Positions 193 through 20,172 of a DNA stretch of 20,172 bases are shown here, in pieces; position 1 is the first letter of the stretch, and each line of letters begins with the position of its first letter. The translations under genes and the position numbers were made by a program. The notes below the pieces were generated by a model, which worked only from the letters and a program-made list of their open reading frames with translations, was not told where the DNA came from and searched no databases. This stretch comes from Cyanobacteria bacterium P01_D01_bin.156 (GTDB taxonomy: Bacteria > Cyanobacteriota > Cyanobacteriia > Phormidesmidales > Phormidesmidaceae): contig JBCCQQ010000086.1 in the NCBI GenBank assembly GCA_039024555.1, positions 1 to 20,172 of the forward strand. The letters are read 5' to 3'.

Positions 193-278
193 ACATAAGA
201 GAGATTTAATAAAAACGTCAGTATGGTCCAATACGCAAAAATGCCCCAGTGTCAGACCTAGCTTCTCCAAGGTTCGCT

Positions 279-863
279 TCAGTAAATCTTCTTTTCCTCA
301 ATTGTTAAGGAAAATCCAGGCAACACATCTTCTCCTGAGACTGTTGTCGGAAATTGCATTACTTCTACCGTTTGTCCAGCTCGATAAATCTCAACAGTTT
401 TTCCTTGAGGATTAATCAAAAAGCCGAGGCGTAAACCGCTATCGAGGTACTCTTTCATTTTTTCTTGAAGCGGCTTTAGTCGGTCACTTTGAGAACGTAA
501 CTCAATAACAAAATCTGGACAAATGGGTGGAAATTTTGTTCGCTGCTCTGGAGTCAACGCGTTCCATCGTTCTGACTGAACCCAGGCTGCATCCGGAGAG
601 CGATCTCCCCCATTAGGTAAATTGAAAATCGTTGAGGAATTAAATACTTCACCCAAACCTGTTTGACGATTCCAAATACCTAAATCGATGATGTAGTTTG
701 CTTCTTGTCTACCGCTTTCACCACCGACTGGGGACATGATAATTAGCTTTCCGGCTGAACTCCGTTCCATGGCAATATCTTTATTTGCCATGCATAGTTT
801 GTAGAACTGTTCATGGTTCAGTTCCTCGACTAACGGTTCTAAGTTGAGATTGATGGCAGTCAT
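279..863 (-). CDS. Uma2 family (DUF820) PD-(D/E)xK endonuclease
   Basis: 194 aa with typical motifs ERSSAGKLIIMSP, RSPDAAWV, FPPICPDFVIELRSQSD, LQEKMKEY..SGLRLGFLINP, GEDVLPGF. Confidence 0.93.
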   Translation of the reverse strand: MTAINLNLEPLVEELNHEQFYKLCMANKDIAMERSSAGKLIIMSPVGGESGRQEANYIIDLGIWNRQTGLGEVFNSSTIFNLPNGGDRSPDAAWVQSERWNALTPEQRTKFPPICPDFVIELRSQSDRLKPLQEKMKEYLDSGLRLGFLINPQGKTVEIYRAGQTVEVMQFPTTVSGEDVLPGFSLTIEEKKIY

Positions 864-946
864 CGCAGGTGAGCCAATCTATCCGTACCACCTCATTCTA
901 GGTGGTCAGACTTACTTTGGCGTGCTAATCCTTGGATGATATTCGC

Positions 947-2008
947 TTATTGAAACCCTCGCCCTCGATTGGCCGGTTTCCAAATCAGGATTTCTCCCTG
1001 ATCGCCGCCTGCGGCTAGATAGGTACCCTGGGGATGCCAAGCTAACGCTGAGAAACCGGAAGCCACACCTTTCAGAGTTTGTTGTAATGATTTAGCCTTG
1101 TGCCATAGACAGAGCTGACCATCTTGGGCCGCTGAAGCAAGCAGTCGAGTGGTGGGATGGAATGAGATCGCAACCACCGTCCCACGATGTTTTTCCAAGA
1201 CTCGATTTTCCCAGCCTTTCTCCTGTCGCTGCCATACCGTCACCGCTTCCAAACAGGCCGCAGCTATCATTGAGGGCTGCTTTTCCATGGGTGCAGCCCA
1301 GGTTACCTGCCGCACCTTGCCCGGAAACCCCTGCATCAGCCAGGGGGGCGGATTTCCCCAAGACACCACGGTTAACGTACGATCCAGATTACCCGATGCC
1401 AAATATCGACCATCTAAAGACCAGGCCACATCAATGCTGGCCCCCGGCACCTCAGCAAACTCAGGCTCAGCATCCCAGTCAACACTTTGCCACACCTTTA
1501 CCCCCGTATGGCCGCTAGCCGCCAGCAACGTACCGTCAGGATGCCATGCTAGGGACAGCACAGAAGATTCTTTAAAGTTTAGACTGGCCAGGGTTTGTGC
1601 ACCCTTGCAGTCCCACACTTGGAGCTGATTCCCCGTACCAAAGGCCAACCAGGAATTGTCTGGATGCCATGCCAGCTGATTAATCCAATGGGGAGAGTGT
1701 TGCAACACCGTTGGCGCCCGATCTAACATAGTTACCTGCCAGATAAATACCTCTCCCCGCTGCCCTGCTGCCACTAAATATTGGCCATTGCCAGAAAATT
1801 CCAGACAGTCAATGGCACTATCCGCTTGGGCAGACAGTAACAAAGTCAGGCCTGTTTCCGTCCAAATAACAACTTCGCCACTGGCAGATGCTGCGACTAA
1901 AGAATCTCTCTCAGAAGACCATGCTAACGCAGTAATATAGTCACCCAGTGCTCCTTTCCAGTGCACCTTGAAGGCATCTGTACGGGAACGACTTTTACGT
2001 ACGGCCAT
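947..2008 (-). CDS. WD40-repeat beta-propeller protein
   Basis: 353 aa with repeated blades such as LAWHPDGTLLAASG, VAWSLDGRYLASGNLD, ISFHPTTRLLASAAQDGQLCLW, LAWHPQGTYLAAGGDQGEILIW. Confidence 0.92.
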   Translation of the reverse strand: MAVRKSRSRTDAFKVHWKGALGDYITALAWSSERDSLVAASASGEVVIWTETGLTLLLSAQADSAIDCLEFSGNGQYLVAAGQRGEVFIWQVTMLDRAPTVLQHSPHWINQLAWHPDNSWLAFGTGNQLQVWDCKGAQTLASLNFKESSVLSLAWHPDGTLLAASGHTGVKVWQSVDWDAEPEFAEVPGASIDVAWSLDGRYLASGNLDRTLTVVSWGNPPPWLMQGFPGKVRQVTWAAPMEKQPSMIAAACLEAVTVWQRQEKGWENRVLEKHRGTVVAISFHPTTRLLASAAQDGQLCLWHKAKSLQQTLKGVASGFSALAWHPQGTYLAAGGDQGEILIWKPANRGRGFQ

Positions 2009-2201
2009 AAGATTATTAGCCCCAATCAGCTATCAAATATCGAAATCCCTCTTCTCAATTCTGAAGATGGCAAAACTCAAAGCTCCCAAAATTGGCAGGT
2101 GAATTAATCATTAAGAGAATATCCTGCTAAGAATGCTATGCCAGTAACTTGAAAGGTTATCGAGGCCCCCTTCCGTCCCCCAATACTGGGGAAGACTATC
2201 T

Positions 2202-2232
2202 TCAAAGCCTCCAAAATTAGGGGTTTGGGGGC
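2202..2232. repeat. Small dispersed G/C-run repeat, copy 1 (partial further copy at 2077-2095)
   Basis: TCAAAGCCTCCAAAATTAGGGGTTTGGGGGC matches 5017-5047 at 26/31 positions. TCAAAGCTCCCAAAATTGG at 2077-2095 matches its 5' half. Confidence 0.65.
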
Positions 2233-2280
2233 TGAACACCCTTAAGCCACAATAAATCACCTTCCAGAATTAGAAAAATA

Positions 2281-2390
2281 TAAGGAATCAGTATTTAATA
2301 ACGTCCATAATTTTGCTTAAAGCAAAGTAAGATATTCTGTCCCCTCCGGGGAGGGGATAAATCGGTACATTATTAAATTGCCGATCCTAA
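2281..2390. repeat. Degenerate MITE-like inverted-repeat element with internal hairpins
   Basis: The left arm TAAGGAATCAGTATTTAATAACGTCC (2281-2306) is an imperfect reverse complement of 2364-2390 (shared core ATTTAATAA). Internal hairpins: TCCCCTCC-GG-GGAGGGGA (2340-2357) and TTTGCTT-A-AAGCAAA (2312-2326). Confidence 0.45.
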
Positions 2391-2433
2391 GCAACCCATC
2401 AAACAGTCCGCCTACATCCCATAAAGAATAGGC

Positions 2434-3417
2434 TTAACTAGCCACCAAACAAGACCGAAACCCTTCCCTGAGCTCAGCCTCATTAAGATCGCGACCAATA
2501 AACACGAGCTCACTCTTACGGGTCTCCGATGGTTTCCAAGGACGCTCTGCCTTACCATCAAAAATCATATGCACACCCTGAAAAACAAAGCGATTGTCTT
2601 CTCCTTGAATATTGAGAATCCCCTTCATGCGAAAAATGTCAGGCCCTTTCGTCTGCAACAGTTCTGACATCCAGGTATTCAGTTTCTCCTTATCTAATTC
2701 TCCATTTTCCACAAACGCTAGGGAGTAAACCGATTCATCATGCTCGTGGGCATCTTCATCCAAAAACTCGGGATCAATTTCCAGGGCACGATCCAAATCA
2801 AACGCCCGTACTCCCAGAATAGAGTCCATCTGCAATTGAGAATTTTGGGTGCGATAAATCTTCACCAGGGCATTCATGTCACGAATCTTGCTCTCCAGGC
2901 TATCTAGTTCCTCGGGGGTAACCAGATCTACCTTGTTGAGTAAAATCACATCGGCAAAGGCAATTTGCTCCTGGGCTTCATCGCTATCCCAATGTTGGTG
3001 AATGTGCTTAGCATCTACCACGGTTACCACAGCATCCAACAACAGCTGCGACTGGATATCCTCATCTACAAAAAAGGTTTGAATCACCGGAGCCGGATCC
3101 GCTAACCCCGTTGTTTCGATTACCAGGTGGTCAAACTTATCGCGCCGCCGCATCAGATTACCAATGATGCGGATTAAGTCGCCTCGCACGGTACAACAAA
3201 TGCAGCCGTTGTTCATCTCAAAGATTTCTTCATCAGCATCGATTACCAGCTGATTGTCAATGCCCACCTCTCCAAATTCATTTACGATCACAGCCACCTT
3301 TTTACCATGTTCGTGGGTAAGAATATTGTTGAGCAATGTGGTCTTTCCCGCCCCTAAGTATCCCGTCAGTACGGTAACAGGAACAGTCGTTAATGCGTCG
3401 GGAGCTGCGGTGACCAT
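2434..3417 (-). CDS. COG0523/CobW-family G3E GTPase metallochaperone
   Basis: Walker A GYLGAGKT, IVNEFGE, metal-binding GCICC (CxCC), ETTGLADP, NKVD (G4), short His/acidic linker DEDAHEHDE, and a CobW_C-like tail (FRMKG...FQGVH...LVFIGR). Confidence 0.95.
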   Translation of the reverse strand: MVTAAPDALTTVPVTVLTGYLGAGKTTLLNNILTHEHGKKVAVIVNEFGEVGIDNQLVIDADEEIFEMNNGCICCTVRGDLIRIIGNLMRRRDKFDHLVIETTGLADPAPVIQTFFVDEDIQSQLLLDAVVTVVDAKHIHQHWDSDEAQEQIAFADVILLNKVDLVTPEELDSLESKIRDMNALVKIYRTQNSQLQMDSILGVRAFDLDRALEIDPEFLDEDAHEHDESVYSLAFVENGELDKEKLNTWMSELLQTKGPDIFRMKGILNIQGEDNRFVFQGVHMIFDGKAERPWKPSETRKSELVFIGRDLNEAELREGFRSCLVAS

Positions 3418-3547
3418 GAAGCAATTTTCCTAAAAATATGCACTGCCTACGATTATGAGAAGTGCATACCAGTAGATATGTTCACCGTAAACAAAACGAT
3501 CTATCTATTTAAAAAGCTTAAAACTAAACGCCCTTAAAGCTCCTTAG

Positions 3548-3832
3548 TCATGAGTCACAACAGTCTGTTGTGACTTTTTTAGTTAACGTCTGCACGATAT
3601 CATCCGCCGTAATCTCACTTGCCGGTTGGTGAATCTTATAGGTTTGGGGAGGCTGTGTCATGATGGCAATCACTGTTTCCAACGGTGGACATCCTGGCTC
3701 TGTACAGGTCAACTGACTAATGGAGAGGGGAACCCCTTCATCCAAAGACAATGTCTGATACACCCAGCCTTTAAGCTGTTTTAACTGTTCTAGAGAGATT
3801 TTAGTCGATGGGGAAGAATCAAATAGACCCAT
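3548..3832 (-). CDS. Small hypothetical protein with CxEPGCPP(L)ET motif and C-terminal CC
   Basis: 94-aa ORF starting 14 nt after the trtA stop, same strand. Contains CTEPGCPPLETVI and ends DCCDS. Confidence 0.8.
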   Translation of the reverse strand: MGLFDSSPSTKISLEQLKQLKGWVYQTLSLDEGVPLSISQLTCTEPGCPPLETVIAIMTQPPQTYKIHQPASEITADDIVQTLTKKVTTDCCDS

Positions 3833-3846
3833 GGTTCAACTGATAT

Positions 3847-4527
3847 TCAACTAACAACGGAAATCGGAGCCAGTGCTGACATCACCTGCTGTGCTGTGGC
3901 AGTCCATCCTACAATACCGCCTTGGGCACGAACCATATCGAGGGTGGCCTGTTTAAATTCTGGAAAATAACTTTCGGTGGCATCCTCCACCAGGAGACAT
4001 TCGTAACCCCGATCGTTGGCTTCGCGCATGGTGGTCTGCACACATACTTCGGTGGTCACTCCCGTAAAAATTAGATGGGTAATGTGGCGCGATCGCAACA
4101 TATCATCGAGTCCCGTATGATAAAACGCCCCCTTACCGGGCTTAGCAATCACCAGCTCATCGCCGTGGGGTTCTAGCTCTGGAATAATGCCGTTCCCCGG
4201 CTCCCCCAGCACCAAAATTCGGCCCATGGGTCCCTCGTCCCCAATCTTTAATGCACCCCGTCCTCGCTCTCGCTTTGACAATGGACAGTCCCTTAAATCT
4301 GCTCGATGCCCTTCCTGGGTATGAATTACCGTTAGCTCCAGCTTTCTAAACATCTGCAACAACTGTTGTACCGTGGGCACAATTGCCTGCAATTGAGAAA
4401 CATCATTACCCAAAGCCTCACCAAACCCCCCTGACTCCAGAAAATCCCGCTGCATGTCGATAACGACCAGGGCAAGCCCCTCCACGGGGAACTCATAATC
4501 GTAGGGCTGAGCAACAATCACCGGCAT
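3847..4527 (-). CDS. trtA: Triuret hydrolase (isochorismatase-like cysteine hydrolase)
   Basis: D-K-C triad (IDMQ, KPGKG, EVC). Shows TrtA-type rather than BiuH-type residues: [10 protein letters not shown] (F/L/N), TTEVC (E), ESYF (Y), GGIVG (I). Confidence 0.82.
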
Positions 4528-4530
4528 TAA

Positions 4531-4875
4531 TCAAACTTCCCCCTTGATAACAACAGGTTTTTCCCAAATAATCAGCACAATGCATCCCTCATCGCTGGCG
4601 ACGGCGTGGCTGGTATTAGGTGGATTGATCACCAAAGTACCTGCACTATGCTTCCCCTGGTGATCTTGCTGTGCTCCTGAGAGTACAAGAATGTGTTCAT
4701 AGCCGCTGTGATCATGGTCAGGTACGGTAGCCCCCGGCTCGTATTTTAATAACGCCGCTGCCGGACCTCGTTGGCCATCTCCATAGAGACGATGAATCTC
4801 AATGCCGGGACGAAACCGCTCCCACGACAGTTGTTCTGGATGCTCTGCAATGGAGAACACATCAGATAAAATCAC
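4531..4875 (-). CDS. ChrR-like cupin (Cupin_7) protein
   Basis: GTG start. Cupin motifs ALLKYEPGATVPDHDHSGYEHILVLSG and NPPNTSHAVAS. Stop lies 3 nt upstream of the trtA ATG. Confidence 0.88.
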   Translation of the reverse strand: MILSDVFSIAEHPEQLSWERFRPGIEIHRLYGDGQRGPAAALLKYEPGATVPDHDHSGYEHILVLSGAQQDHQGKHSAGTLVINPPNTSHAVASDEGCIVLIIWEKPVVIKGEV

Positions 4876-5016
4876 TTAACCTATGCCCCAGCTGACGTTA
4901 GCAACACATACTACACTAATTACTGATTTCCAATGCCCATTGAACATTCTGAGTTTTAAGGCATTTCCTTGAAAGACTACTTTGGTCGAAGCTCCTCAAT
5001 CCTAAAAGGGATAGGC

Positions 5017-5047
5017 TCAAAGCCCCCATAATTGGGAGTTTGGAGGC
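5017..5047. repeat. Small dispersed G/C-run repeat, copy 2
   Basis: TCAAAGCCCCCATAATTGGGAGTTTGGAGGC, 26/31 identical to 2202-2232; intergenic between the ABC ATPase and the cupin. Confidence 0.65.
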
Positions 5048-5100
5048 CTAGACAAGCAGGGAGCCCTTTTCTAGCAATGTCCTGACATGTGTACTACCTC

Positions 5101-6642
5101 CTAATGACCTGCCATGCGCTGACCGATGAGACTAAGATCAGCCTGGGAAATCTCACTTTCATAGACAAATTTACCCTCGCTAATCACAAAAATCCGATCG
5201 GCCAGAGCCAACAGTTCATCCAAATCTTCACTCACCAGCAAAACCGCCACGCCACGGTTACGGGCAGCCACAATGGCATTATGGATAAAATCGACCGCTG
5301 CAAAATCTAGACCAAAACAAGGATTCGCTGCAATCAACAGTTTTACTGACGTCGCTGACAGCTCCCTTGCTAATATGGTGCGCTGTACATTCCCCCCCGA
5401 TAAATGTCCCACTGGGGTTTCCACCGTGGGTGTTTTAACCGAAAATGTTGTTACCAATCCTTGGGCCATCTGCCGCATAGCCTTAAGTATCAGCAACCAG
5501 TTCCACTTAGCTTGGGGAGGACGGTCAAATGTACGCAGTGCCATATTTTCCGCCACACTCATGGTGGGCACACAGGCATTGCGCAGGGGTTCTTCCGGCA
5601 GGGCATAGACCTGGTGCTTAAACATCTCTGCCCGTGTAGCTTGGTAGGTTTCACCATTGACCTGAATCTCTCCAGCAGTAGGTAGGCGCTGTCCAGCTAG
5701 TACTTCGACGAGTTCTTTTTGACCATTGCCCGACACTCCGGCAATACCGACAATTTCTCCACCGTGCACCGTTAGGTTAATGCCATCCACCGCCGGGAGC
5801 CCATTATCTCGATTGGCATGGATATCGGTAATCGCCAGAACAGGCACGTTAGCTGCTGTCTCAGTTTTGTTGACTGATTTTGTCTCACGGGACTTACCTA
5901 ACATCATTTGGGCAAGATCTTCCACAGACAGATCTTTAACCGCCCCCTGCCCAGCTAGTTTACCTTTTCGCAGCACAGTCACTTCATCGGTAAAGGCCTG
6001 CACTTCTCGAAATTTGTGGGTGATTAGCAGAATGCTCAGACTCCCTTTCACCACTTCAGCACGCAGCAACCCCAACACTTCATCCGCTTCCCCTGGTGTC
6101 AGCACTGAGGTGGGTTCATCCAAAATTAAGATTCGGCTTTTAAGATAAAGCTGCTTAAGAATCTCCAGCTTTTGCTTTTCTCCAGCCGACAGTTGGGTCA
6201 CCGGGGTGTGAAGATCCACCTTAAAAGGAGACTGATCAATAAATGTCTGCAGCTGTTGAGATTCTTGTTTCCAGTTAATAATCGATTGAGTATCGTAGCG
6301 GGCTAGCACTAAGTTCTCTGCCACAGTCATGGCGGGGACCGATGTAAAGTGCTGATACACCATACCGATGCCGTAGCTATGGGCATCCTTGGGGCTGTAG
6401 ATCGTCTGCTGTTGTTGGTCAATCAGTATCTGGCCGGAGGTGGGGCGATAAAAACCCATGACACACTTTACCAGAGTGCTTTTACCAGCACCGTTTTCCC
6501 CCAGCAGCGCATGGACCGTCCCCGGCTTTAGGGTCATCGACACGCTATCGAGGGCTGTAAAGCTGCCAAACCGCTTGGTCATGGCCACCACATCCAGCTG
6601 CGGGGGTGCCTGGACCAGGGTGGAAAGGGTTGCAGTGTCCAT
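5101..6642 (-). CDS. ABC transporter ATP-binding protein, double-NBD (CUT2/nucleoside-sugar type)
   Basis: NBD1: GENGAGKST, LSAGEKQ, ILDEPT. Degenerate NBD2: GVSGNGQKE, LSGGNVQR, LLVSEDLDE. Starts 3 nt after the biuH stop. Confidence 0.95.
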   Translation of the reverse strand: MDTATLSTLVQAPPQLDVVAMTKRFGSFTALDSVSMTLKPGTVHALLGENGAGKSTLVKCVMGFYRPTSGQILIDQQQQTIYSPKDAHSYGIGMVYQHFTSVPAMTVAENLVLARYDTQSIINWKQESQQLQTFIDQSPFKVDLHTPVTQLSAGEKQKLEILKQLYLKSRILILDEPTSVLTPGEADEVLGLLRAEVVKGSLSILLITHKFREVQAFTDEVTVLRKGKLAGQGAVKDLSVEDLAQMMLGKSRETKSVNKTETAANVPVLAITDIHANRDNGLPAVDGINLTVHGGEIVGIAGVSGNGQKELVEVLAGQRLPTAGEIQVNGETYQATRAEMFKHQVYALPEEPLRNACVPTMSVAENMALRTFDRPPQAKWNWLLILKAMRQMAQGLVTTFSVKTPTVETPVGHLSGGNVQRTILARELSATSVKLLIAANPCFGLDFAAVDFIHNAIVAARNRGVAVLLVSEDLDELLALADRIFVISEGKFVYESEISQADLSLIGQRMAGH

Positions 6643-6645
6643 AGG

Positions 6646-7329
6646 TTACGCCTTGATCGCCTCGATTAAATCGGGCGATGTGGCCACCGCACCAAACACT
6701 CCGCCCTGCATTTTGATCATTTTTAGCGCGGCCAAGTAGTTGCCGTAGTCGGTGGCTCCGGTGCAGTCCGAAAGCACCATACACTCATAGCCCCGGTCAT
6801 TGGCCTCCCGCATGGTGGTATGCACACACACATCGGTGGTAATGCCCGTGAGGATTAAATTTTGGATGCCTTTACGACGCAGTAAAAGGTCTAGATCTGT
6901 AGCGAAAAACGCCCCCTTACCCGGTTTATCAATCACCGTTTCCCCTGAAATAGGCGCTAGTTCAGGAATAATTTCCCAGCCTGCTTCCCCCCGCACCAGA
7001 ATACGACCACAGGGACCTGGGTCACCAATACCCGCTCCAATTTGTTGAGATCGCCACTGCTTATTTTCCGGCAAATCCGATAGATCGGGGCGGTGGCCTT
7101 CACGGGTGTGCAAAATTACATAGCCCAGTTCTCGCATTACGGCTAGCAACTTTTGCAGCGGTTCAATGGGCGCACGGGTTAGGGATAGGTCGTACCCCAT
7201 TTTGTCCACATAGCCCCCTTTTCCACAAAAGTCCGTTTGCATATCAATCACGATCAGCGCCGTATTGTCAGGGCGCAGCTCGCCATTGTAAGGATATGGA
7301 TAGGGGTCTGAAGTTACGTAGCGTCCCAT
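6646..7329 (-). CDS. biuH: Biuret hydrolase (isochorismatase-like cysteine hydrolase)
   Basis: Closely resembles rhizobial BiuH as I recall it ([43 protein letters not shown]). D-K-C triad present. BiuH-type residues Y/M/Y (GGYVDKMGY), TTDVC (D), GATD (T), GGVFG (V). Confidence 0.9.
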
Positions 7330-7858
7330 AGATATCGCAGGTGTTCTAAAGCAGGGATACCATCTATATCTCTAACCAAAATGTTCGTAACGAACCAAGT
7401 CGTAATTCTTGACTTCAGGAACCCAGCCCTCAGGTATCCGTCCACAATTAAGCATGCGTATTATCGCGGTAGTCTTCAGGTGGCTTACCATCAGAGGTTT
7501 TCTAAGCCTTTGACAATATTCAGTAAATTCACAGCAGCTTCGTCACACACCTACAGTGCAAGAAGAAAACAAACTTGTATTAACGTCTGCCCTTGTCAGC
7601 CTGGGATTAATTAGTAGTTTTTTTGCCATGCTTTTCTTATTTGCCAATAGCCATAATATCCCCAGCATTAGGCTAAATACCGATGGCCAAAGCAGTGCTG
7701 TAGCGTTCTGAGTAACGGTCTTGTGTAGAACGCATTGGCTTGCTTATGTCAGCACGCCATCTACCTGTTTGCAACGAACCCAAGTTGCCAGTATTTAGGC
7801 TGCTATCCTGCCTCTTATAAAAATACTGCGTCTATGACGTACCAGAGGTAAAATAGGG

Positions 7859-10342
7859 ATGACATTGGTCATGCCTATGGATAATTTTTGGGATGTTTTT
7901 ATATCATATGGGCGTGCAGACAGTAGAGAATTTGCCGTTAAACTCAGCCAGCAACTGTCATCGGCACAAGTAAACGTTTGGATTGATATTAACGATATTC
8001 CCCTCGGCGTAGACTACCAAGTACAGATTGATCGCGATATTGAAAGTGCTGACAATTTTCTCTTTATTATTTCGCCCCACTCGGTCAACTCTCCCTATTG
8101 CGCCTTAGAAATTGAGCACGCCCTGCGCTGCAATAAGCGAATTATTCCACTACTACATGTGGAACAGATTACATTTGAAACCTGGCAGCAGCGTTATCCA
8201 GAGGGTACTGATGCCGAGTGGCAAGCGTTTGTAGCAGCTGGGAAACAGACAATTTCTGTTAATATACATCCCGCCATTCGCAAAATTAACTGGGTGTACT
8301 GTCGTGAGGGGATCGATAGTTTTGACCAGGCGGTTGCTGGAGTGCTGGAGCTAATGGCTCGAGATCGCACCTATGTGCGACACCACACTCATTCGCTACT
8401 CAAAGCATTGGCATGGCAGCGCCATCAAAAGCAGACAGAATTTTTGCTAATAGAAGAAGCGCGACAGCAGGCGCAACGGTGGCTAAAAACTCAGTTCAAG
8501 GGACAGCAGCCCCCCTGTTTACCCACTGACCTACAGTGCGAATTTATTACTGAAAGCCTTAAGTACGGCGACAATTTAATGTCTCAGGTCTTCCTGGCCT
8601 ACGCTGAGGAAGATAAGACCATAATGGAACAGATTCAGCGGTTTCTGAGACGTCAGGGAATTACAGTCTGGACAAATACCACCTGCGTTCAAACTGGCAG
8701 CGATTTCTCTGAAGCCATTGATCGAGGCATTGAAGCCGCTGATAATCTGGTCTACCTGTTGTCAACGGCAGCCCTAAATTCTCCCTGGTGTCAGCATGAA
8801 CTCAACTATGCCCTGGCATTAAATAAGCGAATTATTCCTATCCAGGTAAGCACCACTGCAGGATTTTCACCAGAATTGCAGAATTTACAGCACATTGCTC
8901 TAACGCAGGAGACTCCTCTGGAAGATACGGATTTTCTTAAAATCCTTAAGCAAGAGGAAGTGTACCATCGAGAACACAAGCTACTGTTAACCAAAGCGCT
9001 GAAGTGGCAGCAACAAAATCGCAATCCTAGTATTTTATTGCGGGGCTATAATCTACGCCATTCAGAAGCCTGGTTGAAAGTTGCTGACAAACAAGGGCAA
9101 TTTTCGCCAATACCACTCCAAATAGAATTTATTGCAACAAGCTTACAACACCCAGCAGAGAGTTCGTTAGATGTATTCATCTCTTACTCTAGAGTGAACT
9201 CTGAATTTGCACGTCAGTTAAATGATGCGTTGCAAACTCAGGGTAAAACCACCTGGTTTGACCAAGAAAGTATTGCTTCTGGATCTGACTTTCAACAGGA
9301 GATTTTTTCTGGCATTGAAAACTCTGACAACTTTCTGTTTGTAATTTCTCCAAGTTCAGTAAGCTCTCCCTACTGTGCTGAGGAGGTTAACTATGCGGCG
9401 AGCTTAAACAAGCGGATTGTGACTGTTCTGTATCAGCAAGTGGAATATGAGACTTTACCAGACGCTCTCAAAACTCTACAGTGGATTGATTTTAGAAACC
9501 ATCGGGGGGATTTTTATACTCACTTTGGTGAACTGGTAAGAACTTTAGATACCGATCGAGAGCATGTACACCAGCACACCCGCTGGTATCAGCGGGCTAT
9601 TGATTGGCAGCAAAAGGGCAAAAGTCAGGATTTATTACTGCGGGGTAGTGAGTTTGCGATCGCAAACGACTGGCTACAGATAGCTCAACAGAAACAACCA
9701 CCGCCAACGGCCCTCCAGCAAGCCTTTATACAGACTAGTGAAGCCAGCATTAAAGCCGCTGCAGAACGGGAAAACCAGCAAAAAGTCGTGTTGCGATCGC
9801 TGTTGGGGCTTATGAGTATTGCCTTTTTCACAGCCACAGGTCTGGGTGTGTGGGCCTTTTCCCTATGGCGACAGTCAGAGATGGCCCAGTTAGAGACACT
9901 GACCAGAACCGCCAAGGCACTTTTTCTAGCCGATCAAAAGCCAGACGCCCTAGTTACTGCCGTAAAAGCAGGACAGCAGTTACCTAGAATTCCTAGAGCG
10001 GATCAGGCCCCCGTACTCAGTGCTTTACAACAAGTTGTGTATGGCATTCGTGAGCTACGACAGCTAAACGGCCATGGGGACCGGGTCAACAGTGTGGCCT
10101 TTGCCCCAGATGGTCAAGTGTTTGCCACTGCCAGCGACGACAATATTGTCAAAATCTGGACCCGGGACGGAACCCTAATTCAGGCAATAACCGACCATCA
10201 AGACCGAGTAAACCAGGTCACATTTAGCCCCGATGGTCAGTTTTTTGCCACTGCCAGTGCAGCAATTCTCAGTATGAGATTTTTGTCCCGAAATTGGATC
10301 CTAATGCTCAGTTATCTGAACGAGGAATCAGGCTTTCAGTAA
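7859..10342 (+). CDS. N-terminal fragment: three TIR domains, TM helix, first ~2 WD40 repeats; terminates inside the MITE
   Basis: TIR motifs DVFISY..YCALEI, QVFLAY..WCQHEL, DVFISY..YCAEEV. Hydrophobic segment LLGLMSIAFFTATGLGVWAFSLW. The last ~27 residues are MITE-derived. Confidence 0.7.
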   Translation: MTLVMPMDNFWDVFISYGRADSREFAVKLSQQLSSAQVNVWIDINDIPLGVDYQVQIDRDIESADNFLFIISPHSVNSPYCALEIEHALRCNKRIIPLLHVEQITFETWQQRYPEGTDAEWQAFVAAGKQTISVNIHPAIRKINWVYCREGIDSFDQAVAGVLELMARDRTYVRHHTHSLLKALAWQRHQKQTEFLLIEEARQQAQRWLKTQFKGQQPPCLPTDLQCEFITESLKYGDNLMSQVFLAYAEEDKTIMEQIQRFLRRQGITVWTNTTCVQTGSDFSEAIDRGIEAADNLVYLLSTAALNSPWCQHELNYALALNKRIIPIQVSTTAGFSPELQNLQHIALTQETPLEDTDFLKILKQEEVYHREHKLLLTKALKWQQQNRNPSILLRGYNLRHSEAWLKVADKQGQFSPIPLQIEFIATSLQHPAESSLDVFISYSRVNSEFARQLNDALQTQGKTTWFDQESIASGSDFQQEIFSGIENSDNFLFVISPSSVSSPYCAEEVNYAASLNKRIVTVLYQQVEYETLPDALKTLQWIDFRNHRGDFYTHFGELVRTLDTDREHVHQHTRWYQRAIDWQQKGKSQDLLLRGSEFAIANDWLQIAQQKQPPPTALQQAFIQTSEASIKAAAERENQQKVVLRSLLGLMSIAFFTATGLGVWAFSLWRQSEMAQLETLTRTAKALFLADQKPDALVTAVKAGQQLPRIPRADQAPVLSALQQVVYGIRELRQLNGHGDRVNSVAFAPDGQVFATASDDNIVKIWTRDGTLIQAITDHQDRVNQVTFSPDGQFFATASAAILSMRFLSRNWILMLSYLNEESGFQ

Positions 10343-10401
10343 ATTGCCATTCTCAAAAATCAGGGTTTTACAGACCAATATTGTCATACTGAGAATTGCT
10401 G
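10260..10401. mobile_element. 142-bp MITE (non-autonomous IS derivative) with 18-bp perfect TIRs and 9-bp TSD
   Basis: CAGCAATTCTCAGTATGA (10260-10277) is the exact reverse complement of TCATACTGAGAATTGCTG (10384-10401). The direct repeat CTGCCAGTG flanks it at 10251-10259 and 10402-10410. No transposase inside. Confidence 0.95.
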
Positions 10402-12083
10402 CTGCCAGTGCCGATGGTAGCGCCAAGCTCTGGACTAGAGATGGCCTGCTAGTGCACACTCTCCGGGGACATCGAGGAGAAGTTAAAAGCGTTGTCTTTA
10501 ATTCCGATCCGCAGACAAACGCCCCCGTCTTAGCAACCGCTGATGTTGAAGGCAGTATCTATCTATGGAATCAGAATGGCCAGATCATAAACATCTTTCA
10601 AGCCCATCAAACATCGATTAATCGCTTAGTCTTTAGCCCTGCTCCTACCGGAGAACAGATAGAGAAAAACAGACTCACACTCGCCAGTGCCAGCGACGAT
10701 AGCACCGCCAAACTATGGACTCTAGATGGGAATTTACTGCAAACCCTCAGCGGTCACGGAAGTGCTGTCCAAGACATTACCTTTAGTCCCGACGGAGCGG
10801 TTATCGCCACCGTTAGCGATGATAAAGTCACCAAGATATGGAACCGTAATGGTCAAGAACAGCAAGCCTTAATTGGCCACAGTGCCCCTGTCAACAGTGT
10901 TGCTTTTTCCCATGATGGGGAGGTAATAGCTACCGCCAGCGATGACCGTACAGTGAGACTTTGGAGCCGAGAGGGAGAAACTCTACAAACCCTTAGCGGT
11001 CACCTCACCGAGGTTAAGGATGTCGCTTTTGCCCCCGATGGTCAAACCATTGCCACCACCAGCAATGACAACACGATTAAACTCTGGGAACTCACAGGAG
11101 ATCAACTACCCAGCTTTAAAGGCCATACAGATTGGGTGGTGAGTGTTGCCTTTAGTCCCGACGGTCAGACTATCGCCACCGCCAGTGGAGATAACACCGT
11201 CAAACTGTGGAACCGCCAGGGAAAAACTCTGCGGACCTTTACCGGGCATACAGATTGGGTCAATGAAGTGACTTTTAGCCCGGATGGTGCGACCATTGCC
11301 ACCGCCAGTAATGATAACACTGCTAAACTTTGGACCCTGCAAGGTCAAACCATCGCCACCCTGAGGGGGCATCAAGATCAAGTTAGTAGCGTCGCCTTTA
11401 GCCCGGATGGTCAAACCATTGCCACTGCCAGTGCCGACCAAACCATTAAGCTTTGGGACCGACAAGGCAATGAACGTCAGATGTTCACAGGCAATAACAG
11501 CTGGGTCAGAAGTGTTAACTTTAGTCCCGATGGTGACACCATTGCCTCCTCCTATGCTGATGGCGCGGTTAAGCTTTGGAACCGTGATGGCACAGTGTCA
11601 AAAACCCTCTTGGGTCACGATGACTGGGTTAGAGAAGTCATCTTTAGCCCCGATGGCCAAACCATCGCCACCGCCAGTGCCGACAACACCATTAAACTTT
11701 GGCACCGCAACGGTGACCTCCTACAAACCCTCTATGGTCATAACTATTGGGTTATCGGTGTTGCCTTTGCACCCGATGGCCAAACCATTGCCACCGCCAG
11801 TGCCGACAACACCATTAAACTTTGGCACCGTAACGGTGACCTCCTACAAACCCTCTATGGTCACAAAAACTGGGTTGTCGATATCGCCTTTAGCCCCAAC
11901 GGTCAGACCCTAGCATCTGCCAGTGGAGATAAAACAGTCATTCTGTGGAATCTCGATGACTTTACCTTAGAATCGCTCATTGCCAGGGGATGTCGCTGGC
12001 TGACCGACTACAGTCGCGACAGTGACGATACCACAATGACTAAAGTCACGGATCTCTGCCAGCACGAAATATTAGACCAATGA
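10344..12083 (+). CDS. C-terminal fragment: 12 complete WD40 repeats (TTG start lies within the MITE)
   Basis: Regular 41-aa GH...FSPDG..IATAS.D.T.KLW repeats. The first ~19 residues are encoded by MITE sequence. Confidence 0.5.
   Translation: MPFSKIRVLQTNIVILRIAAASADGSAKLWTRDGLLVHTLRGHRGEVKSVVFNSDPQTNAPVLATADVEGSIYLWNQNGQIINIFQAHQTSINRLVFSPAPTGEQIEKNRLTLASASDDSTAKLWTLDGNLLQTLSGHGSAVQDITFSPDGAVIATVSDDKVTKIWNRNGQEQQALIGHSAPVNSVAFSHDGEVIATASDDRTVRLWSREGETLQTLSGHLTEVKDVAFAPDGQTIATTSNDNTIKLWELTGDQLPSFKGHTDWVVSVAFSPDGQTIATASGDNTVKLWNRQGKTLRTFTGHTDWVNEVTFSPDGATIATASNDNTAKLWTLQGQTIATLRGHQDQVSSVAFSPDGQTIATASADQTIKLWDRQGNERQMFTGNNSWVRSVNFSPDGDTIASSYADGAVKLWNRDGTVSKTLLGHDDWVREVIFSPDGQTIATASADNTIKLWHRNGDLLQTLYGHNYWVIGVAFAPDGQTIATASADNTIKLWHRNGDLLQTLYGHKNWVVDIAFSPNGQTLASASGDKTVILWNLDDFTLESLIARGCRWLTDYSRDSDDTTMTKVTDLCQHEILDQ
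11649..11863 (+). repeat. Near-identical tandem duplication of a WD40 repeat (123-bp period)
   Basis: 11649-11740 and 11772-11863 are identical at 90/92 nt, and both differences are synonymous (ATC/ATT, CGC/CGT). Confidence 0.9.
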
Positions 12084-12099
12084 GATAACTAGATAGGCA

Positions 12100-13125
12100 T
12101 TAGATCTTGCTTACAACGCTCGATGGTAGTTCTTCCCCTTGATACTCACGAGTGGGGGCTTCAAAGCCGCAGGATGTACCGTCGGTATAGACCACCTCAT
12201 CTTCCCAGGGCAGGCGATAGTTACCGGCCACCATATCTTTCATATAGGTATAGGGGCAATCCTGGGCACCTCCTTTGACCGCTACATAGCCCCGGTGACC
12301 AAACTGGTAAATATTGTTCTCAACCGACCAGTGCTGACGGGCCTCGCGCACTAAATCAGGTCGCACTTCAGCGGTGATAATCTCGTCCGGGCGATGGCTG
12401 CCCATTACTAGGGGCTCACCATCAAAGTCAACGATCATGCCCTCACCCATGGAGTCAAAGGTGCCATCGGTACCACACATACATACGGATGCTGTGACTA
12501 TCAGATTACAAAAGGCATTGGCTTGATTTGTGACGCGCCAGCTGTGGCGAATAGGGGCTGTATAGCCTGCGGTGCGGATCATAATCTCAGCTCCCTTGTA
12601 GGCGCATTCTCTTGCCATTTCAGGAAACATACCATCGTGGCAAATGATCAGCGCCAGCTTACTGCCGTTGGGACCATCACACACAGGAATACCAATATTT
12701 CCCGGTTCCCAGGGTTCCACCGGCACCCAAGGATGGAGTTTGCGGTAGTAAAGCTTTAATTCTCCTGTGTCATCAATAATGATGCCGCTGTTGTAGGGAT
12801 TGCCATTGGGGTTGTATTCCATAATCGAAAAACAGCCCCAGATTTGATTATCAATACAAGCCTGACGGAATGCGGCCACTTCTGGCCCGTCTAGCTTGCA
12901 CATAATGTCAGGGTTGGTATCCATGGACAGACCATGGAGCGAATACTCGGGAAAGACAACCAAATCCATAGTAGGCATATTACGACGGGCTTTAGCCACC
13001 ATGTCGCAAATACGCTTGGTTTGAGCAGCCAGGTCATCTGGGGTAACAACATTGGGTAGCTGTAATTGGACCATACCCATAACAACCCCGTTTGGCGTTT
13101 TATTTAGACCACCCAAGCCACTCAT
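12100..13125 (-). CDS. amiF: Formamidase (nitrilase/aliphatic amidase superfamily)
   Basis: E-K-C triad: VFPEY, YRKLHPW, IICHDG (CHDG is the formamidase-type motif, versus CDDG in AmiE). FPEMARECAYKGAE also present. GAGGA RBS upstream. Confidence 0.85.
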   Translation of the reverse strand: MSGLGGLNKTPNGVVMGMVQLQLPNVVTPDDLAAQTKRICDMVAKARRNMPTMDLVVFPEYSLHGLSMDTNPDIMCKLDGPEVAAFRQACIDNQIWGCFSIMEYNPNGNPYNSGIIIDDTGELKLYYRKLHPWVPVEPWEPGNIGIPVCDGPNGSKLALIICHDGMFPEMARECAYKGAEIMIRTAGYTAPIRHSWRVTNQANAFCNLIVTASVCMCGTDGTFDSMGEGMIVDFDGEPLVMGSHRPDEIITAEVRPDLVREARQHWSVENNIYQFGHRGYVAVKGGAQDCPYTYMKDMVAGNYRLPWEDEVVYTDGTSCGFEAPTREYQGEELPSSVVSKI

Positions 13126-17352: not shown

Positions 17353-17578
17353 GGTAGGCTCCAGTAGTTAGCTGGTAGGCTATCACAGACTTATAAATGG
17401 AGCCATCGAAGCTATTCATATTCAAATATTGCATGTTGCCCGTCCTCGAAAATTGCTAAAAACCTTACAAGCTGACAGCCAGGAGTGAACACATTAGCCG
17501 CAACCAGACTGAGCGAACTAAAAATACGTATTCAGAACTCTCATTAAAAATATCTCATTACCTACAGACCAGTAATAG

Positions 17579-17923
17579 CTATACGTACAATAACTGATTA
17601 TGTATTTCATCAGCGGTCAAGGCGTTTAAGATAATGCCAGCTCGCTTGGCTACTTCATAGGCATTGTTCTGTGGCGTTACAATAATGCCTGAATGCTCCT
17701 TTTCTGCTTGCACATACTCTAGATGCAATCTTTCAAAATCTACTCGATTGTGGGTGAGAATGCAGCGTTCTAATGATGTGGCAAAAGCTAATTGTTCTAC
17801 ATCCGAGTATCCTGTCACTTCTGCTTCGACAGTTGTTAAGACATCTAAACCTCGACTTCGTAAAAGTGTTGCAACCAGATTGGCAATATCTTCATCTGTG
17901 TAGAGCGATGCAAATATTTTCAT
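17579..17923 (-). CDS. DUF5615 family PIN-like toxin (VapC45-like)
   Basis: LYTDED, G.DV, SDVEQL.FA...RCILTHNRVDF and HSGII. 4-nt ATGA overlap with the upstream DUF433 gene. Confidence 0.9.
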   Translation of the reverse strand: MKIFASLYTDEDIANLVATLLRSRGLDVLTTVEAEVTGYSDVEQLAFATSLERCILTHNRVDFERLHLEYVQAEKEHSGIIVTPQNNAYEVAKRAGIILNALTADEIHNQLLYV

Positions 17924-18237
17924 TCTGCTTCTAGGGCTTTACGAACAGCAGGATGAATGAGTTCTTCTGGAATGCGATTAAGCTCAATATATTCGTTAAT
18001 TTCTGCCTGATTGTCTAAGTAAAAGCTGAGGGCGTCAAAAACTTGTGCCAGGGTCAGCTGCGGAAACTGTGTGGGAATTTCTTCTGCAGGTGTACCCAAC
18101 CGCCATTGGCCAACGAGAGTTCTTACGGAGACACGAGTGCCGACAACAGTTGGTTCCCCATCTAGAATAGCTGGATTTCGGGTAACGTATCTTGATGTAG
18201 TGGTTGCTGTCATCGCTTCAATCCACGTAGGGGTCAT
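17920..18237 (-). CDS. DUF433 antitoxin (VapB45-like); alternative start at 18213
   Basis: ILDGEPTVVGTRVSV...EEIPTQFPQLTLAQVFDALSFY, the DUF433 signature. Confidence 0.92.
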   Translation of the reverse strand: MTPTWIEAMTATTTSRYVTRNPAILDGEPTVVGTRVSVRTLVGQWRLGTPAEEIPTQFPQLTLAQVFDALSFYLDNQAEINEYIELNRIPEELIHPAVRKALEAE

Positions 18238-18515: not shown

Positions 18516-19100
18516 ATGCCTTCGAAAAAAGAGCTTCAGGCCATCCTCCAAGATCAATATGGCATTAATAAAAATATTAGCCAGCCCCTTGGTACTGAAG
18601 ATTGTGAGCAGTTACTAGCAACTTTGCAAAGCCAGCCCAGTGCCGTTAAGCTTGTGGATTCTTATGCTTCAAAGAATTCAGAGTTGGGAAAAAATAACCA
18701 GCACTATGGTCGCCTTCGTAGCAATGCAGAAAAAAAGCTGAAGAAGCTCCAATCGGAATATCAGGATCTAGAAGTACAAATTGAAACAATGGAGAAGGCT
18801 AAAGTCAATCTTTCTGAGCGGAAGCAGGTCATTAGCAAGGAAACAGCGGCCCTTGAAGCAGAAATTAAGCGGTTAACGGCTGAAAAGTCATTGCTAAACT
18901 CCAGGGTTCAAAACCTAACCACACAGAATGACGAGTTGGTGGATGCGAATACTCAGCTCAAAAAGGATAATAGGGAACTCAAAAACTTCGTTGACCAGAT
19001 CCGCTTGCGGCTGGCCCGAGATACTAAAATGCTGCTGCAGTATGAGGATAGTGAAATCCGTAAAGCGCTGATTCGTTTATTCCGATGGACCCTGGGGTAG
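18516..19100 (+). CDS. Hypothetical protein with a long (~100 aa) coiled coil
   Basis: 194-aa ORF with heptad-rich EKKLKKLQSEYQDLEVQI...LKNFVDQIRLRL and small N- and C-terminal caps. First of three co-oriented genes. Confidence 0.85.
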   Translation: MPSKKELQAILQDQYGINKNISQPLGTEDCEQLLATLQSQPSAVKLVDSYASKNSELGKNNQHYGRLRSNAEKKLKKLQSEYQDLEVQIETMEKAKVNLSERKQVISKETAALEAEIKRLTAEKSLLNSRVQNLTTQNDELVDANTQLKKDNRELKNFVDQIRLRLARDTKMLLQYEDSEIRKALIRLFRWTLG

Positions 19101-19111
19101 AGGGTATCGCC

Positions 19112-19543
19112 ATGGCTACTAAGAAACGGAAAAAAAGCAAGAAGCGTCTCTTCAGCGGTATGAGTTACCGCGAGGTACAGCGTTCGAACTCAGATCGGCG
19201 TAGCAAGCTACCGAAAAAAGATCGAACTTTGCTCAAAGAACAGGGATATAAAAATGTTGGTTGGGACAATGTTATTGCCCTCTATCAAAAAATCAACGAG
19301 CTTCTGCTACAGCCCGATCCAAATGAAGATACGCTCGAAGAACTATTTTTGAAAGCGGATCGAATTGGTAATAAGTATCAAACTCCAGAGGAAATTGCTG
19401 ATTTTAATCGAAAGTTAGCTGCTGAGGCGAACGAAATTGCTGAAATAGTGGATCGGCAGTTTCCAGAACCGGAGACAGAGTTTATTGACTATAGCCAGTC
19501 GAAAACAAAGGCTAAATCAAGGTCTAAACGTAAGCGTCGATAG
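19112..19543 (+). CDS. Hypothetical helical protein with strongly basic N- and C-terminal tails
   Basis: ORF-track start is 19085, but the in-frame ATG at 19112 follows a GAGGG RBS and avoids overlap. Tails are KKRKKSKKR and KTKAKSRSKRKRR. Confidence 0.8.
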   Translation: MATKKRKKSKKRLFSGMSYREVQRSNSDRRSKLPKKDRTLLKEQGYKNVGWDNVIALYQKINELLLQPDPNEDTLEELFLKADRIGNKYQTPEEIADFNRKLAAEANEIAEIVDRQFPEPETEFIDYSQSKTKAKSRSKRKRR

Positions 19544-19578
19544 GTTCTAAAAATCTCTCTTGATTGGAATGATTTATT

Positions 19579-20016
19579 ATGGCTGATAAAACATTAGAAG
19601 AACTCTTTGCTTTAGCCGATAAGGTTGGTAAGAAGCGATACCACCGATTGACGACACAAGACTTTGAAGACTATCGAAAGTTTGACCATTGGCGATATGT
19701 CAACGGAAATAGCGAGTGTGGAACGACTGCTGAAAGCAAGAAATGGGTTCGCAACAACGCTGACCGTCATTGTCCCATTTGCAATCAACGGTTTTCTGAT
19801 TGCGGTGGTCCAACCATCGATCACAAACTTCCTCGGGCTCAGTATCCTTGGCTTTCACTTGATTTTAGGAATTTCTGGGTGATCTGCCAAGACTGTAATC
19901 GGGAAAAGGGGGAACGGCATTGGTATGAGTATGAGCATTATATGTTTATTCATCATCGCGATCGCTACGAAGAGGTGCAATTTGCCCGTCCAAGACAATT
20001 GCTAAAGAGTCTATAG
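19579..20016 (+). CDS. Zinc-binding HNH endonuclease
   Basis: CPIC...TIDHKLPR...RNFWVICQDCNREKG (CxxC, DH, N, CxxCN) with an N-terminal extension of ~60 aa. Confidence 0.9.
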   Translation: MADKTLEELFALADKVGKKRYHRLTTQDFEDYRKFDHWRYVNGNSECGTTAESKKWVRNNADRHCPICNQRFSDCGGPTIDHKLPRAQYPWLSLDFRNFWVICQDCNREKGERHWYEYEHYMFIHHRDRYEEVQFARPRQLLKSL

Positions 20017-20053
20017 CCTGACAGCCAGGTAAGAATAAGCTTCACTGTACTTA

Positions 20054-20172
20054 GGGTTTGCTGAAAAACTGAATAGAAATCTCAGGGGTTATCCCATCGC
20101 CCAGACAGGGTCAGTAGTCCCTTTCCTAGAGGCAAGGATTTTCAGCCAGTCCTTGCATAGCGTTTCTGTAAA
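20054..20172. mobile_element. Probable terminus of an IS5-like element or MITE running off the window
   Basis: TTA-GGGTTTGCTGAAAAA (20051-20068) resembles a terminal repeat I recall from cyanobacterial IS/MITEs. The partner repeat is not in the window. Confidence 0.4.

Follow-up and report, generated by a model that had tools for sequence, protein, structure and literature searches.

The window, that is, the whole stretch of DNA that was analyzed, is the entire contig C86 of 20,172 nt. Toward its end lie three co-oriented ORFs on the + strand, g1 (18516–19100, 194 amino acids), g2 (19112–19543, 143 amino acids), and g3 (19579–20016, 145 amino acids), separated by intergenic gaps of 11 nt and then 35 nt, in keeping with the tight packing noted in a preliminary description of this DNA. 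We set the start of g2 at the ATG at 19112; an upstream ATG, at 19085, is the one that the ORF finder picks. A sigma-70 promoter-like site was not found in the 278-nt gap upstream of g1, and the promoter-like count in this region was 6, compared with a shuffled mean of 5.6.

As first described, the three-gene cassette is divergent from a DUF433 + DUF5615 TA-type pair (17579–18237), both domains of which Pfam placed on the opposite (−) strand, and it abuts the end of a multi-copy IS-like element (20052–20172) that breaks the contig. This end lies near eight contig ends of the source genome with differing flanks, and a variant of it occurs at five further contig ends; a search for a plasmid match to it found none. 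We considered the TA pair and the IS end as parts of the system and rejected both because neither is conserved at other cassette loci; the context invoked at the outset consists of neighbors in this window only, and the element end lies outside the cassette. A relic of a second copy of g3, from its 3′ end, lies at 17436–17483 (+ strand), with 78% identity over 54 nt to 19975–20028. The gene order in Adonisia is DUF433-g1-g2-g3-DUF5615-DUF433. This order, with its two DUF433 copies, together with the relic g3 end, suggests that the layout of the window arose by a duplication via the two DUF433 copies and a subsequent deletion.

Elsewhere in the window, positions 7859–12083 encode a triple-TIR protein with terminal WD40 repeats and, 1 nt downstream, a WD40-only ORF with a TTG start; the two are possibly a single TIR-WD40 gene split by a frameshift or a stop, which may be defense-like itself. 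The stretches 279–7329 and 12100–13125 hold a Uma2 gene and a cluster of genes for a CobW GTPase, two isochorismatases, a cupin, an ABC ATPase, and a nitrilase-type hydrolase.

The product of g3 is a predicted zinc-HNH nuclease. It matched the Pfam HNH family (E 4.4e-6), and its zinc and catalytic residues, read as intact from the start, proved invariant in 76/76 aligned relatives (Cys-65, Cys-68, Asp-81, His-82, Asn-98, Cys-103, Cys-106, and Asn-107). The PADLOC model PDC-M01B matched residues 57–114 (E 1.1e-11), covering 54 of 285 model positions, and PtuB models matched the HNH core only, with a best E of 7.9e-9. Fold searches aligned 87 residues with the Gme HNH nickase (PDB entry 4h9d; VIA Z 5.1, rmsd 3.5), and McrA (PDB entry 6ghc) surfaced weakly. 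In front of the HNH core, g3 carries an N-terminal helix pair (19588–19674, + strand; residues 4–32) with the positions Leu-6, Leu-9, Phe-10, Ala-13, Gly-17, and Tyr-21.

The coiled-coil protein g1, initially put at ~100 amino acids, is actually 194 residues long and is composed of a ~60-residue N-terminal helical domain, a variable coiled coil, and a conserved C-terminal end. Pfam returned coiled-coil matches only, all of them sub-threshold, and a PDB sequence search for a solved relative of the C-terminal end gave nothing significant. Relatives are mostly 156–290 amino acids long, the coiled coil varying in length and the C-terminal end being kept. Some of them have the N-terminal domain swapped for an unrelated one, with the C-terminal end unchanged, and these alternative domains suggest a swappable sensor. 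In one subclade (L229-L231, L233, and L234) the different N-terminal domain is presumably UBA/RuvA-C-like, and the C-terminal end is the same.

No match to g2 was found in Pfam, PADLOC, or NCBIfam, and for g1 and g2 together, Pfam, NCBIfam, PHROG, and PADLOC gave nothing beyond generic coiled coils. The statement in the preliminary description that neither protein belongs to a recognized system therefore stands, and the PADLOC check proposed there returned no named family for g1 or g2 and HNH-core matches only for g3. The Atlas search matched only unnamed cyanobacterial clusters, and a g2 profile run over 1.84 billion representatives found only 114 clusters of the family. The protein has basic tails at both ends, an N-domain (19145–19306, + strand; residues ~12–65), and a docking module (19325–19462, + strand; residues 72–117) with the core Leu-75, Leu-78, Phe-79, Ala-82, Gly-86, and Tyr-89. 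Folded alone, g2 reached a pTM of 0.28, and the fold search, which barely reached the N-domain, gave nothing useful; a PDB sequence search for a solved relative gave nothing significant. Judging solely from its basic, aromatic make-up, the N-domain may bind nucleic acid. It also occurs outside cassettes (P0193, P0198, P0211, P0216, P0218, and P0223; L033 and L042), alone, in tandem, or fused, in one case to a DprA-type winged helix, and may be a new small nucleic-acid-binding domain.

The preliminary description had stressed the K/R-rich tails of g2. Our results point instead to a helix common to g2 and g3 as the key feature of the cassette: g2 residues 72–98 resemble g3 residues 4–32 (hhalign probability 94%), and the hydrophobic and glycine positions of the common helix are nearly invariant in both families. 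When a profile built from host g2 sequences only was run against the 22,995 ORFs of the source genome and the phage Lbo402, g2 scored 109 bits, a gene of Lbo402 35 bits, and g3 19.6 bits, the next best match reaching 10.2 bits. We followed weak g2 matches to two distant clades of three-gene cassettes (6 and 3 loci). Both keep the g2 N-domain (hhalign probability 98%), with a coiled-coil gene ahead of it and an HNH gene after it; family scans of their partner proteins found no named family. In the larger clade, g2 and g3 share a different C-terminal helix (E 2e-4, 48% over 23 columns), and in the smaller (third) clade the likeness of the g2 and g3 helices was not significant.

We modeled a complex of two g1 chains and one g3 with g2 as the scored partner. 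The docking score of g2 was 0.77, compared with 0.00 for the best of three controls. In a calibration, 116 of 157 solved complexes scored this high, as did 2 of 215 mismatched pairs, counts that apply only roughly, as the calibration used pairs of single chains, unlike the multi-chain job. The runs agreed in at least 93% of contacts, with a partner pLDDT of at least 71, and placed g2 residues 72–117 on residues 149–194 of both g1 chains, the predicted docking site on the g1 dimer (18960–19097, + strand). Conservation is 85% in the interface columns of g1 and 52% in its coiled coil. The lowest-error contacts are the six core residues of the docking module, and the best g2 contact positions are those conserved in g3 and in the phage copies described below. 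A control with g1 replaced scored 0.00, which is no evidence against a direct g2-g3 contact. Because the PDB searches found no solved relative for g2 or for the g1 end, a high score due to memorized structures is less likely. The complex modeling suggested in the preliminary description thus supports g1-g2 binding. The symmetric g1 dimer of the model would offer two docking sites, and g3 probably takes one of them, given the homology of its helix.

A genome-collection scan with the g2 alignment confirmed 124 relatives, the best 80 of which were analyzed: 77 were from cyanobacteria and 3 were labeled “uncultured bacterium.” Relatives carry names of Leptolyngbyaceae-type cyanobacteria. The co-occurrence check by homology and neighborhood, which had been proposed at the outset, bore out a fixed order: g1, g2, and g3 followed each other at 78 of these best 80 loci, the two misses being contig edges, and at 70 of another 78 loci (50 from metagenomes and 28 from the family), the remaining 8 ending at a contig edge; all 50 metagenome loci hold cassette g2 genes. 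Searched separately, g1 and g2 marked the identical 33 of 173 family genomes, and 31 of the 33 had a full-length g3; one miss was contig-cut, and the other (G002) has a transposase-interrupted g2, with g3 not found. Five genomes had a g3 match without g1 or g2, all of them without the N-terminal helix and one contig-cut. Loci and genomes are related and hence not independent in any of these counts. The cassette is a real, conserved, unnamed cyanobacterial operon.

Among 116 non-edge cassettes (24 edge loci were skipped), 108 were intact. The eight aberrant ones comprise three with a broken g3 (one with a second full copy), two with g1 frameshifts, one with a divergent g1 end, one that lost g3 together with g2, and one (G782) with an intact g3 without g1; a broken g2 beside intact g1 and g3 was seen in 0 of the 116. 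This pattern, taken from eight loci, is not significant (an estimate based on gene length gives ~0.17 for the five breaks confined to one gene), and breaks in metagenome-assembled genomes may be errors.

The dN/dS ratios against Adonisia turfae were 0.072, 0.071, and 0.078 for g1, g2, and g3, indicating purifying selection on all three genes in this comparison; the four further comparisons were largely saturated. A housekeeping DNA-processing complex that acts in repair, recombination, or natural transformation and is modulated by phages would suit the high conservation, the low dN/dS, the mostly housekeeping flanks, and the pairing of a coiled coil with a nuclease, which we take to be reminiscent of repair complexes. 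Such a role is nonetheless very improbable, as the distribution is patchy: strong matches occur in 68 of 401 class genomes, the cassette is present in just 33 of the 173 genomes of the family and 10 of the 22 of the genus, and it was not found in several near-complete genomes. It also has no fixed locus and leaves decayed remnants.

The flanks of the cassette are variable, with 796 neighbor clusters among 1110 neighboring ORFs, and one copy lies on a plasmid. TA, Uma2, XisHI, and Fic genes made up 20 of 147 nearest neighbors versus 1 of 140 genes >6 kb away within these loci (a manual count at Pfam E<=1e-8; the genomes are related and not independent). This >6 kb control set held a few other defense genes, e.g. 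a BamHI-type enzyme and Cas2, and the nearest neighbors were mostly housekeeping genes. From the variable flanks and the TA-type enrichment amid housekeeping neighbors we conclude that the cassette lands in insertion hot spots and rarely in classical defense islands. Only one examined locus, L126 of a distant clade, lies directly behind a restriction-modification operon; positions 268–10785 of this 45.5-kb contig (a plasmid of equal size is known) hold a type I restriction-modification operon together with XisH/XisI, Uma2, and YgjP genes.

The many insertion sites and the relic second g3 end could be read as traces of a self-mobilizing element, in which the HNH protein nicks target DNA and so spreads the cassette. 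We regard this as extremely unlikely. No terminal repeats or att-like flanks common to the 80 loci were found, which led us to reject att-site mobility, and the cassette has no recombinase. No conserved motif beyond HIP1 was found upstream or downstream, the relic is explained by duplication via the two DUF433 copies seen in Adonisia, and the phage copies of the g2 module would be left unexplained. No credible Rfam match pointed to an associated RNA. A conserved operator upstream of g1 was not found either: the top upstream 7-mers occurred in 12 of 77 sequences, compared with 7–10 in shuffles, and this would weaken a classical antitoxin-repressor role for g2.

The C-terminal module of g2 is also found in phages and in a plasmid-like region. 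A representative search placed it inside three unrelated long proteins, P0229, P0207, and P0225. P0229 is a DarB-like protein of 2420 amino acids (E 7e-111) whose module has 59% identity over 61 amino acids (85 bits), and P0207 has two tandem copies. The genome G017 holds both the cassette and a prophage gene, between portal and head protease, that carries the first helix (31 bits). In IMG/VR, 4/20 and 4/25 candidates were confirmed, the identical four contigs both times: a portal C-terminal extension (L237, 54 bits), related 1700–2000-amino-acid proteins in front of tail genes (L238 and L240, 53 and 18 bits), and a stand-alone 121-amino-acid gene inside a head cluster (L239, 44 bits). Neither g1 nor g3 was present within the fetched stretches of L237-L240. 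The cultured Leptolyngbya phage Lbo402-yong5 has a 57-amino-acid gene (WYD66234.1) that holds little beyond the module (35 bits; E 0.4 by BLAST, significant only with the profile); it lies at the start of the record, with an integrase at the record end. A 74-amino-acid stand-alone copy (L227, 28 bits) lies in a plasmid-like region of G684.

With the host-only g2 profile, the phage and plasmid copies score 28–85 bits per domain, apart from L240 at 18 bits; since chance matches reach 18–19 bits, L240 is counted solely via its homologue L238. Matches to Uma2 tails in G776 and G833 (18–19 bits), an off-frame match within another gene in G013, and weak matches in G278 and G353 were rejected as chance. 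At 18–19 bits, the C-terminal tails of Uma2 proteins (L228:2027-2899 and L247:627-1352) are similar to the latter half of the g2 module, a likeness due either to chance or to a remote source of the module. Copies of the module in phages are rare. Full-length g2 had no significant match among 50,697 GenBank phages, three scans of viral sequences, queried with patterns from host proteins only or with P0225 and P0207, found no copies, and word searches for long fusions returned only P0244 and P0207 itself.

In L237, L239, G017, and P0229 the module lies among head genes or is fused to portal, head, or DarB-like proteins. Head-packaged anti-defense proteins have precedent: PMC12810830 and PMC5512222 describe phage P1 Dar and polyvalent virion proteins that are packaged in the head and co-ejected for counter-defense, with portal and MuF fusions among them. 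P0229 is like the P1 Dar proteins in being DarB-like, and by analogy the module-bearing virion proteins would be packaged and ejected; unlike P1 Dar cargo, the copies here are a ~50-amino-acid piece of a host operon protein.

Together, these data make it most likely, at somewhat better than an even chance, that the cassette is a hub-assembled anti-phage nuclease against which phages carry docking mimics. The preliminary description had proposed an undescribed ATPase-less system; the linked unnamed unit, the coiled-coil scaffold, and the intact HNH residues stand, and the defense reading has gained indirect support, from the patchy distribution, the TA-type neighbors, and the phage-borne modules. 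We propose that the three proteins act as a module against phages and other mobile DNA. g1 would be a coiled-coil dimer whose conserved C-terminal end is the docking hub, as modeled for g2, and g2 and g3 would use this hub via their common helix, one site per dimer face. Phages and plasmids would have captured the docking module of g2, as virion-head fusions or as tiny stand-alone genes, and the captured module would plug the hub and block loading of the nuclease on g1. A host fragment kept in several unrelated phage scaffolds suggests a benefit to the phage, and the fragment is the modeled g1-binding surface, so that a plug is the simplest reading. Gene linkage, the intact active site, the common helix with its phage copies, and the modeled g1-g2 interface are computed results, whereas g3 docking, the trigger, the DNA or RNA substrate, the defense role, and inhibition by the phage copies are inferred. 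RNA is a possible substrate of g3, given that retron PtuAB cuts tRNA (PMC12673091).

Two versions of this proposal differ in the part given to g2. In the one that we tentatively favor, while holding it short of probable, g3 would become active when g1 holds or pairs it, and g2 would be a natural plug that sits in the docking sites and leaves the nuclease inactive until infection takes g2 away or diverts it. The two-helix g2 module would then make a larger contact than the g3 helix, and the breakage pattern fits weakly, without significance. In the other version, which we consider rather unlikely, a g1-g1-g2-g3 assembly is the active enzyme and the g2 N-domain picks the target; the fact that no conserved operator was found fits g2 as such a required targeting subunit.

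The phage copies can also be read in the opposite sense, with g1 as a guard that holds g3 inactive until a phage helix displaces and thereby activates it, the host module imitating a phage feature. Hosts and phages do have the motif in common, in proteins of which many are associated with the virion and would arrive early, and defense by retron Eco7 is triggered by release of PtuAB from its inhibitor (PMC12673091). However, phages retain the module within scaffolds that are unrelated, as a tandem pair (P0207), and as entire genes of 57 and 121 amino acids, all of which implies that the phage gains from it. In addition, G782 still has an intact g3 although it has no g1, and G017 contains a prophage copy alongside the cassette. 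We thus consider a guard distinctly improbable.

Small type II and tripartite TA operons place an antidote gene before the toxin gene, and phages carry copies of antidotes as antitoxin mimics. The cassette is similar in having a putative antidote gene before a toxin gene, a TA-rich neighborhood, and a phage copy of the putative antidote; it is unlike them in that the putative antidote was modeled on a third protein, g1, via a helix also present in the putative toxin, neither g1 nor g2 matched a TA family of Pfam, and no operator was found. A selfish tripartite addiction module with no anti-phage role, in which g1 and g3 form the toxin, g2 is the labile antidote, and the mobile copies are anti-addiction genes, would account for the TA-type neighbors, for g2 never being broken alone in 116 cassettes, for the interrupted g2 in G002, where g3 was not found, and for the plasmid-like stand-alone copy L227. 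Copies in virion-head genes fit an action at DNA entry better, though, and addiction is also at odds with the strong purifying selection on chromosomal cassettes, with the ready loss of the cassette, and with the failure to find a conserved operator, leaving it an improbable account.

The anti-phage nuclease that we favor resembles known HNH-effector systems in part. Zinc-HNH PtuB of Septu and retron Eco7 docks through helices onto a partner dimer (PMC12673091), and the core of g3 matches PtuB; like it, g3 has an HNH with a zinc finger. Unlike those systems, the cassette has no ATPase, reverse transcriptase, or RNA, and the putative docking helix of g3, unlike that of PtuB, is N-terminal and duplicated in a third protein. 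For Septu, a PtuA ATPase was sought and not found: g1 and g2 had no ATPase match, and no PtuA-type family occurred among the 147 nearest neighbors (E<=1e-8), where two SMC_N matches look like housekeeping RecN/SMC. The C-terminal helical domain by which PtuB binds PtuA is likewise absent from the 145-residue g3, whose matches end near 106–110 of 213–224 model positions (for example, positions 21–106 of 214). McrA (type IV) and ZorE (Zorya II) are, as in the cassette, HNH effectors with no cognate methyltransferase; the cassette differs in its obligate linkage to g1 and g2 and in having no ZorA/ZorB membrane motor genes, no Zor model being among the listed PADLOC matches for g1 and g2, and all three ORFs being soluble; a modified-base reader was not recognized either, in fold searches that barely reached the g2 N-domain. 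IscB-type HNH proteins bear a RuvC domain, exceed 300 amino acids, and have a conserved guide RNA. The IscB match of g3 (E 0.024) scored 13.8 bits against a cut-off of 175, and no conserved guide RNA was found. PDC-M01B and stand-alone HNH nickases such as Gme HNH are like g3 in the HNH core, at the domain level only, and g1 and g2 match no PDC-M01 partner. The cassette thus resembles HNH-effector defense or TA systems, yet it lacks tested features of Septu, Zorya II, IscB, and PDC-M01.

A literature search found no description of the cassette, which subscription papers or the supplementary tables of defense-prediction studies could list, and none of Lbo402-yong5. HNH-effector defense and phage mimics are kinds already known. 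What the cassette could add, a possibility that we put forward tentatively, is a class of immune nuclease governed by site occupancy on a two-faced hub, where nuclease and regulator compete via a duplicated helix and neither an ATPase nor a nucleotide signal nor a guide RNA takes part. A second clade uses this design again, with another helix, and cyanophages would have repeatedly captured the docking module of the regulator and would deliver it as a plug, in the virion or from a 57-amino-acid gene. About 1 in 6 sampled cyanobacterial genomes carries the cassette. If it serves in defense, it is a nuclease system of very small size (1.5 kb) that does without an ATPase and whose regulatory logic would be competition for a docking hub, for which we found no match in the literature. 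The phage copies argue for relevance in nature and offer ready candidate inhibitors, and residue-level predictions (Leu-78, Phe-79, Ala-82, and Gly-86 of g2; residues 155–163 of g1) and a cultured phage are at hand for testing. Anti-defense genes may be findable via host-operon fragments inside virion proteins; if the reading is true, the module marks an anti-defense protein family that can be found from host sequence alone.

Finally, related arrangements turned up beside the cassette and its phage copies. In P0244 (Leptothoe), g2 is fused after the first docking helix to an unrelated ~340-amino-acid domain, and L224:3184-6211 (G002) holds a fusion of this type interrupted by a transposase, g3 not being found in that genome. 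Cyanophage head proteins at L124-L125, L237, and L239 contain the repeated short motifs RxD and xFAE/xFSE, which may presumably be maturation-protease sites that free internal cargo. A fourth type of three-gene cassette (L222:2030-3266, G003:C421; 140, 137, and 135 amino acids, the last an HNH protein) lies among Uma2/DUF-type genes; by eye, its first gene has a short motif like that of distant-clade g1, and its middle gene is without the g2 N-domain.
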